A stretch of 31,816 nt of DNA from a virus (taxonomy: Duplodnaviria > Heunggongvirae > Uroviricota > Caudoviricetes): IMG/VR virus record IMGVR_UViG_2563366912_000005, one strand, 5' to 3'. The notes beneath the pieces are model-generated. The model was not told the origin of the DNA and did not search any database. It was given only the letters and a program-made list of their open reading frames with translations. Numbering within the stretch: the first letter of the stretch is position 1; the number at the start of each line of letters is the position of its first letter. Below, piece after piece: positions 1 to 749 of this stretch. Position numbers and translations under genes: made by a program.

Positions 1-60
1 TTACCCCCTGGATCTGATTTCAGGCGTTGGGTGTGGATCACTATTGCACCGTTCGTGACA
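1..60 (-). mobile_element. Terminal 60 bp of a second IS100-like (IS21-family) copy, inverted relative to the complete copy; element body lies beyond the window edge
   Basis: Positions 1..60 are the exact reverse complement of 20918..20977 (the left end of the complete IS); identity stops sharply at 60/61. Confidence 0.8.
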
Positions 61-351
61 TCCGGAAATACCTTCCCCAAGATGCATCAGTTCTTCGTCC
101 GTTCGCTCCGGTATCCCGTTCTCTTCCGGTAAAAGGCTGAAATCAGCCACCGCAGCATCACTGCTGCCGGACACCATTCTCACGATCAATGCCTTCAGCG
201 AGGCAAACTGCGCATCCATCCACACATCACTGAAGCTCTGCATCCGGAAATAATCGCCCCACTCACCAAGCTCAGTGGCCGACATTTCCGACAGCATCCG
301 CCGCCAGTCTGCCCGCCTGAACTCCCGGGCAAGCCGCATGACAAACTGCAT
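61..351 (-). pseudogene. Tail assembly protein T-frame segment (C-terminal part of a gpG-T frameshift product), 3' end replaced by IS sequence
   Basis: Frame is -1 relative to gpG and open from about 380; sits where lambda T lies after G; the reading frame runs into IS-derived sequence at 60, so the last ~20 residues of the listed ORF are IS-encoded. Confidence 0.55.
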
Positions 352-359
352 TTCCCGCG

Positions 360-749
360 TCAGGACTTTTCCGGCGTCAGCACCTCATGCTCCAAATCCC
401 CGGCATTCTCAATGGCTCCCATACCGCTCAGCGACAGAACCATCTCCGCCCCCGTTCCCAGGGCATCATACGACCATGTTGTAATAACGGATGCGCAAAG
501 CGTCTCAACATCCTGAGACTGTTCCGCATTCCACAGTGAGCGGGAAACCAGCCAGGCATTGATATCCATCCCCATCCGCAGAAAAGCAATCTGTCGTTCA
601 GCCTCCGGCAGTTCTCCCTCTTCGGCATCAAACTTTGCCGTTCGCTGCTGAACAAACGCCAGATATTCAATTCTCTGCAGCCCGGACAGCTCACTGAGCA
701 CCACGGACTGCTTTTCATAATTAAACGTGCCCTGTTTCAGAAACATCAT
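360..749 (-). CDS. Tail assembly chaperone, lambda gpG-like
   Basis: Translation [32 protein letters not shown] resembles lambda gpG as recalled; lies between major tail protein and the T frame; start taken at the internal Met pair. Confidence 0.75.

Follow-up and report, generated by a model that had tools for sequence, protein, structure and literature searches.

IS100, an IS21-family element first described in Yersinia pestis, is 1954 bp long, carries istA (HTH and rve domains) and istB (an IstB_IS21 AAA+ domain) between imperfect terminal repeats that start with TGTCA, and is flanked by a 5-bp target duplication. Qin (Kim), a cryptic prophage of E. coli K-12, lies beside rspB, rspA and ynfA-D. 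In phage lambda, the tail assembly proteins G and G-T carry Phage_TAC_2 and Phage_tail_T domains, with T in the -1 frame over the end of G. Inversions flanked by IS100 copies have been documented in Y. pestis (PMC1940323).

The stretch of DNA analyzed here (the window, 31,816 nucleotides) corresponds to positions 1483042-1514857 of KE136973.1, a 2.63-Mb scaffold of an E. coli assembly (GCA_000408245.1). Two segments of this scaffold, L004 and L010, matched the window with 0 mismatches over 1-10351 and 9276-30937, respectively. At the rspB locus lies a Qin-like lambdoid prophage, of which the window contains the part from integrase to T. The prophage adjoins rspB, rspA and ynfA-D, the same neighborhood as that of Qin. 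Read from right to left, the window contains integrase, xis, exo, dicB, cI/cro-like genes, DUF977, a DUF4209 gene, hokD, rem and ydfU, then a Q-like antiterminator, csp genes, lysis genes, terminase and portal, followed by protease-capsid and head-tail genes, V, G and T. The genes shared with Qin are dicB, ydfA, hokD, rem, ydfU, ydfT (annotated as an antitermination protein), cspB and cspI, and further essD, rrrQ, rzpQ and gnsB. A direct repeat of 200 nt with 73% identity (12053-12252 and 14941-15140) corresponds to the prophage cold-shock paralogs cspI and cspB.

The most useful reference for the uninterrupted prophage was the complete genome of 19KM1766N (L003), which is without both IS100 copies and matches window positions 61-20917 with 5 mismatches and 22877-31816 with 3 mismatches; to the left of the internal IS, window position x equals L003 position x+11940. 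Both edges of the window are stop codons, that of the T chimera at 1-3 and that of the integrase at 31814-31816, and the window was therefore cut at gene boundaries. An earlier reading made from the letters alone (the sequence-only reading) had taken the left edge, which falls inside an IS, as a sign of an assembly break at a repeat, but the 2.63-Mb scaffold, with its 100% match, continues across the IS without interruption. Some further draft assemblies of this clone are broken within this copy: L006 ends 113 nt into the IS, and a contig from a sister isolate, L011 (ANYK01000034.1, GCA_000326765.1), is broken there too. The latter, at 21,142 bp, consists only of the segment between the two IS copies with IS100 ends on both sides, so the orientation of that segment is ambiguous in that assembly. 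The features of the window on which the analysis draws are the following.

1..60, minus strand: first 60 nt of IS100, its left inverted-repeat end (IRL), an exact reverse complement of 20918-20977
1..351, minus strand: chimeric open reading frame (116 aa) made up of T residues 1-97 and 19 aa encoded by the IS, with its stop codon at 1-3
61..65, no strand: TCCGG, the 5 bp adjoining IRL, presumed target-site copy of the original T/H insertion
61..351, minus strand: portion of the tail assembly chaperone gene that stems from T, collinear with L003 12001-12291; the native gene is 39 nt longer
360..746, minus strand: intact gpG tail assembly chaperone (Pfam Phage_TAC_2, E=2e-39, and the RefSeq annotation of identical relatives)
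363..384, minus strand: overlap of G and T; relative to G, T is in the -1 frame, which is open from 384
19276..20937, plus strand: DUF4209/DUF7380 gene cut by the internal IS100 after 547 native aa, to which the IS adds 6 aa
20913..20917, no strand: AAATC, left copy of the target duplication of the internal IS100; the empty site in L003 is TTACGAAATCAACTAG
20918..22871, plus strand: complete IS100 (IS21 family), 1954 bp, a simple insertion, inverted relative to the edge copy
22872..22876, no strand: AAATC, right copy of the target duplication of the internal IS100, read directly from the sequence

The internal element agrees with IS100 in every respect. It is 99.9-100% identical over 1954 bp to elements annotated as IS100 or IS100kyp on E. 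coli plasmids and chromosomes, so that the label "IS100-like" given to it by the sequence-only reading was well chosen. Its istA (21004-22026) has the Pfam domains rve (E=4e-18) and HTH_7, and its istB (22023-22805) has IstB_IS21 (E=8e-112). The 259-aa IstB protein is very common, with 23,382 blocks containing it; the 10 locations listed were unrelated to this locus and came mostly from a single 4.65-Mb genome rich in copies. The termini are imperfect repeats, with IRL (TGTCACGAACGGTGCAATAGTGATCCAC) and IRR (TGTCAACGACGGATGAAAAGTGATCCAC) matching at 21 of the first 28 positions; the terminal inverted repeats read TGTCACGAACGG...GTGATCCAC and TGTCAACGACGG...GTGATCCAC. As in IS100 generally, a 5-bp target duplication flanks the internal copy.

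The gene interrupted by this copy is placed between hokD and the replication genes, and its 3' remainder is found at 22872-23022. The intact protein of 595 aa (L003 31216-33003) matches the PADLOC family PDC-S39 with E=3e-102; by this match, the internal IS100 knocks out a prophage-borne candidate anti-phage gene of a candidate defense family. IS100 lands in prophages repeatedly: a near-identical prophage (L001 8489-10723, NZ_CP148378.1) has IS100 in a Gifsy-2-family 'DNA breaking-rejoining' head-tail gene, and in other genomes IS100 is found beside ninB or a terminase gene.

At the left edge, within-window comparison showed positions 1-60 to be a 100% reverse complement of 20918-20977, the left end of the internal IS100. 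By our own estimate (~5e8 position pairs x 4^-60) about 1e-27 chance matches of 60 nt are expected, and the match therefore cannot be chance. The sequence was extended leftward using public contigs that encode the exact T chimera, with the source scaffold matching the window at 100%. The body of the edge element (istA, istB and the right end, IRR) is situated to the left of the window in both L004 and L005. In L004 it occupies 10292-12245 and is 1954 bp long with 0 mismatches against the internal copy; it is complete in L005 too. The two copies are thus perfect inverted repeats 20,857 bp apart that bracket the proximal-tail, head, lysis and Q segment. Here the sequence-only reading, which had proposed from the exact 60-bp match a second, inverted copy at the edge and two inverted copies about 20.9 kb apart around the tail-head-lysis-Q segment, was borne out on each point. 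Its suggested check, a leftward extension to find the rest of the IS, its target duplication and the distal part of T, turned out only partly as foreseen: the full IS body was found, but with no target duplication and no distal T, and the 3' part of aldA in their place.

The flanks of the edge copy account for this outcome. The adjoining 5-mers are unlike (CCGGA and CGTTG), and therefore there is no target duplication. In L004 the sequence runs ...GGTATTTCCGGA into IRL on one side and leaves IRR as CGTTGGGCAAGAAC on the other; in both L004 and L005 the order is T', ending in ...TTTCCGGA, then IS100 (1954 bp), then CGTTGGGCAAG..., which is aldA from nt 633. The absence of a duplication is the only respect in which either copy departs from the known element, and it would arise because the two flanks of the edge copy stem from two different insertions. 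On the prophage side, TCCGG at 61..65 is presumed, from its position next to IRL, to be a target-site copy of an original IS100 insertion between T and H, and it shares bases with GGAGG, the ribosome-binding site of H.

The insertion point within the tail genes was placed by comparison with L003, in which T (11962-12291) and the tape-measure gene H (8925-11990) are both on the minus strand. The boundary between IS and T (window 60/61) lies 39 nt before the native T stop and 10 nt upstream of the H ATG. Identity to the IS thus ends inside the 3' end of T, and not, as had been read from the letters, where the T frame begins. The reading of the 1..351 frame as a chimera with an IS-encoded C-terminus was correct: native T in this relative has 109 aa, of which the last 12 (GVRYGPDSQPGH) are swapped for the 19 IS-encoded residues. 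The exact 116-aa chimera is encoded on 6 public contigs. Pfam Phage_tail_T aligns to residues 24-97 of the chimera over profile positions 1-71 of 73, and to native T over 1-73 of 73.

Upstream, gpG is intact and the arrangement fits T being made as a G-T frameshift fusion, judging from the -1 frame that is open from 384. The T frame is open for 11 codons upstream of the T ATG and overlaps the G stop. The overlap at 363..384 (CCGGAAAAGTCC), which reads CCGGAAAAGTCCTGA, is presumed to be the -1 frameshift zone. The canonical lambda slip heptamer GGGAAAG was not found before the G stop; GGGAAAT occurs only just after it.

Past the edge IS100, the sequence continues with aldA from nt 633 (its 3' half) and then with gapC, cybB, ydcA, hokB, trg, ydcI, ydcJ and opgD. 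From the aldA 3' half to opgD, the order and strands are those of MG1655 at 1.489-1.498 Mb in the ascending direction. One SNP and one 1-bp indel distinguish L005, a contig of 304.7 kb, from L004 and mark it as a separate assembly; it has the same T'-IS100-aldA3' join. None of the T'-IS, DUF4209-IS and IS-aldA3' junctions was present in 5426 complete E. coli genomes. Gene annotation reports two proteins for this gene, a 256-aa Aldedh protein from the aldA 3' half (L004 12283-13053) and a 218-aa 'lactaldehyde dehydrogenase' from the 5' half; these calls are artifacts of annotating a single gene split across ~180 kb.

The distance between the two sequences joined by the edge IS100 was determined in complete genomes in which both regions are intact and present at ~100% identity. 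For EC1722-1 (NZ_CP081192.1), window position 61 is at 2425396 and aldA nt 633 at 2604277, 178,881 bp apart. The corresponding positions are 2379950 and 2559558 in strain 190 (179.6 kb apart), while in strain D3 window position 58 is at 2205598 and aldA nt 633 at 2025183 (180.4 kb apart). Orientation was equally informative. The plus strand of the window and the plus strand of the aldA part of L004 both map to the minus strand of EC1722-1, at 2402416-2425396 and 2596172-2604277, respectively. L004 carries the window reverse-complemented, and its prophage and aldA parts therefore map to opposite strands of the intact genomes. The segment between the breakpoints contains dif (GGTGCGCATAATGTATATTATGTTAAAT) at 2485116-2485143 of EC1722-1 (L013 5117-5144); its distances to the T/H and aldA breakpoints are 59.7 and 119.1 kb, respectively, so that an inversion of the segment shifts dif by ~59 kb.

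We consider it likely that the edge IS100 is the recombinant joint of a ~179-kb inversion, which arose when homologous recombination followed two opposed insertions. One IS100 would have inserted between T and H at the target TCCGG, a point that leaves 39 nt to the T stop and 10 nt to the H start. Another, in the opposite orientation, would have inserted in aldA at nt 633-637, with the target CGTTG. Homologous recombination between these identical 1954-bp inverted copies would then have flipped the ~179 kb between them, that is, H through J, the tail fiber genes, ~165 kb of chromosome and dif. The resulting order would be T', IS100 and the aldA 3' half at one end, and the aldA 5' half, the other IS100 and H at the other. 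The reciprocal joint is accordingly predicted to run from aldA nt 1-637 (ending in CGTTG) through IS100 from IRL to IRR into CCGGAGGTGTGCGTTATGGACC..., the start of H, M, L, K, I and J.

Half of this reciprocal joint can be recognized from its protein product. Reading aldA nt 1-637, including CGTTG, into IRL predicts AldA residues 1-212 followed by VSRTVQ, a protein of 218 aa. This exact chimera is present in a collection of 15 billion proteins (EOV36006.1 and ELJ26884.1, E. coli KTE166), and five alternative junction geometries (a duplication of 0, 4 or 6 bp; the IRR end in place of IRL) were absent from the same collection. The longest of the contigs that encode the AldA chimera, at 2,629,362 bp, has the length of the scaffold carrying the window. 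The protein accessions there follow the order EOV36006 (aldA 5'), EOV36171 (T chimera) and EOV36197 (DUF4209 chimera); with accession spacing being approximate, the gaps of 165 and 26 proteins roughly agree with a ~180-kb inverted segment and with 20.9 kb. For the junction of IRR with H, which, like the order of events, we infer, a scan of metagenome contigs for IRR-CCGGA-H gave 0 matches; the control T'-IRL junction also gave 0, the clone not being in that collection.

Sequence polarity in the terminus converges on dif, and should survive an inversion that contains dif. Preserved polarity toward dif would explain why the inversion is tolerated.

Other histories would leave some of the same traces. 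If a single IS100, for example the aldA copy, had moved by intramolecular transposition to the T/H site and inserted there in inverted orientation, a copy and an inversion would have been created together, and neither the four junctions nor the placement of the 5-bp repeats would be any different. Elements of the IS21 family are able to form cointegrates from tandem copies. Nothing diagnostic, and no intermediate, sets such a one-step origin apart from two insertions followed by recombination. IS-flanked inversions are usually caused by RecA recombination between identical repeats, here of 1954 bp, as has been seen in Y. pestis; we regard the one-step origin as unlikely. The AldA chimera occurs on 13 contigs and the T chimera on 6, so the aldA insertion may be the older of the two; the difference in contig numbers could equally be an assembly effect. 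It is also conceivable that there are only two simple IS100 insertions, in aldA and between T and H, and that connections were swapped across identical repeats, which would make the inversion an artifact of scaffolding. Short-read drafts of the clone do break inside IS copies, as L006 and the 21,142-bp L011 contig demonstrate, and only assembled contigs were available, with the connectivity of KE136973.1 (presumably short-read data with mate pairs) across at least three identical 2-kb repeats resting on the long-range information of the assembly. Against this, the 2.63-Mb scaffold and the 304.7-kb contig are separate assemblies that agree on the T'-IS100-aldA3' join. The L005 match covers only window positions 1-10351, and its contig reaches more than 110 kb to either side of the edge IS100; it would also traverse the internal IS100, which suggests long-range or long-read data. 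We therefore judge mis-scaffolding to be quite improbable.

The two remaining alternatives are contradicted by what lies beyond the IS. A simple insertion of IS100 into T, with the distal part of T, the duplication and the tape-measure gene directly beyond it, would fit the 60-nt IS end that adjoins T, and the insertion point and TCCGG are compatible with an original simple insertion. Leftward, however, there is no duplication, and aldA from nt 633 and gapC through opgD are found beyond the IS in both L004 and L005, which makes this explanation extremely improbable for the present arrangement. An IS-mediated deletion of the DNA between aldA and the T/H site would also be expected to leave a recombinant IS without a duplication. 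The genes from the aldA 3' half through opgD, however, which normally lie between the breakpoints, are retained here in inverted orientation, the same scaffold still carries the fusion of the aldA 5' half to IRL, and a deletion would remove dif as well. Because the genes between the breakpoints are kept and flipped, a deletion is excluded for practical purposes.

The consequences for the prophage differ in part from those first proposed. The sequence-only reading held that disruption of T probably leaves the prophage unable to make functional tails. Functional tails are indeed hardly possible, but T keeps 97 of its 109 aa and profile positions 1-71 of 73 of Phage_tail_T; the main defect of the prophage is the parting of H, M, L, K, I and J from the late operon, and not the mild truncation of T. 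Tail assembly is not expected because these genes and the fiber genes lie ~180 kb from the late operon and in inverted orientation to it. The prophage is physically split, its G-T chaperone has an altered C-terminus, and aldA is inactivated. The relocated genes H through J would now lie downstream of the aldA 5' half and IS100, in the same direction as istAB.

The rearrangement also has practical consequences for genome annotation. The prophage call ends at T because the inversion moved the remaining tail genes ~179 kb, not because the prophage ends there. Predictions of prophage boundaries and completeness for this clone will accordingly be wrong, and half a prophage will show up elsewhere as an orphan tail cluster. 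With at least three public assemblies and the chimera on 6 contigs, the locus provides an example of a dif-spanning inversion that persists in a lineage. It likewise illustrates how IS activity domesticates a prophage, in this case with the inactivation of aldA and of the candidate defense gene (PDC-S39) as well.

The two IS100 copies in the window could in principle flip the 20.9-kb segment between them. Only the window orientation of this segment was found in the resolved scaffold, and the junction chimeras cannot report isomers. The inversion to which the data point is the far larger one of ~179 kb between aldA and T/H; no evidence was found for a flip of the 20.9-kb segment. A more far-reaching possibility is that the three identical IS100 copies (at the aldA 5' half, T' and the DUF4209 gene) make the terminus-proximal region switch recurrently, with the 20.9-kb segment, the 179-kb segment or both flipping measurably often in populations. 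We consider this very unlikely; if true, switching could alter the expression of H through J or of the prophage late genes, and the locus would show heritable on/off variation and not a frozen scar.

In comparison with the known systems, the phenomenon itself is already familiar: the IS is a known element present as an identical copy, inversion mediated by an IS is a known type of event, and current understanding is left unchanged. With lambda, the locus shares the Phage_TAC_2 and Phage_tail_T domains and a T frame at -1 over the end of G, and its intact relatives (L001-L003) keep the pair between the major tail protein gene and the tape-measure gene. It differs from lambda in the replaced C-terminus of T, in having IS100 and the aldA 3' half downstream of T instead of the tape-measure gene, and in having no canonical GGGAAAG ahead of the G stop. 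Unlike Qin, the close relatives of this prophage are full length with head and tail genes, and its decay would have proceeded by IS100 insertion and inversion, in contrast to the deletions in K-12. The closest counterpart is provided by the IS100 inversions of Y. pestis (PMC1940323), which represent the same flip of a large chromosomal segment between inverted IS100 copies, after which the flanks of the IS copies no longer match. The present case, in which three of the four junction halves are seen, differs in that the host is E. coli, one breakpoint is inside a prophage late operon, and dif is spanned.
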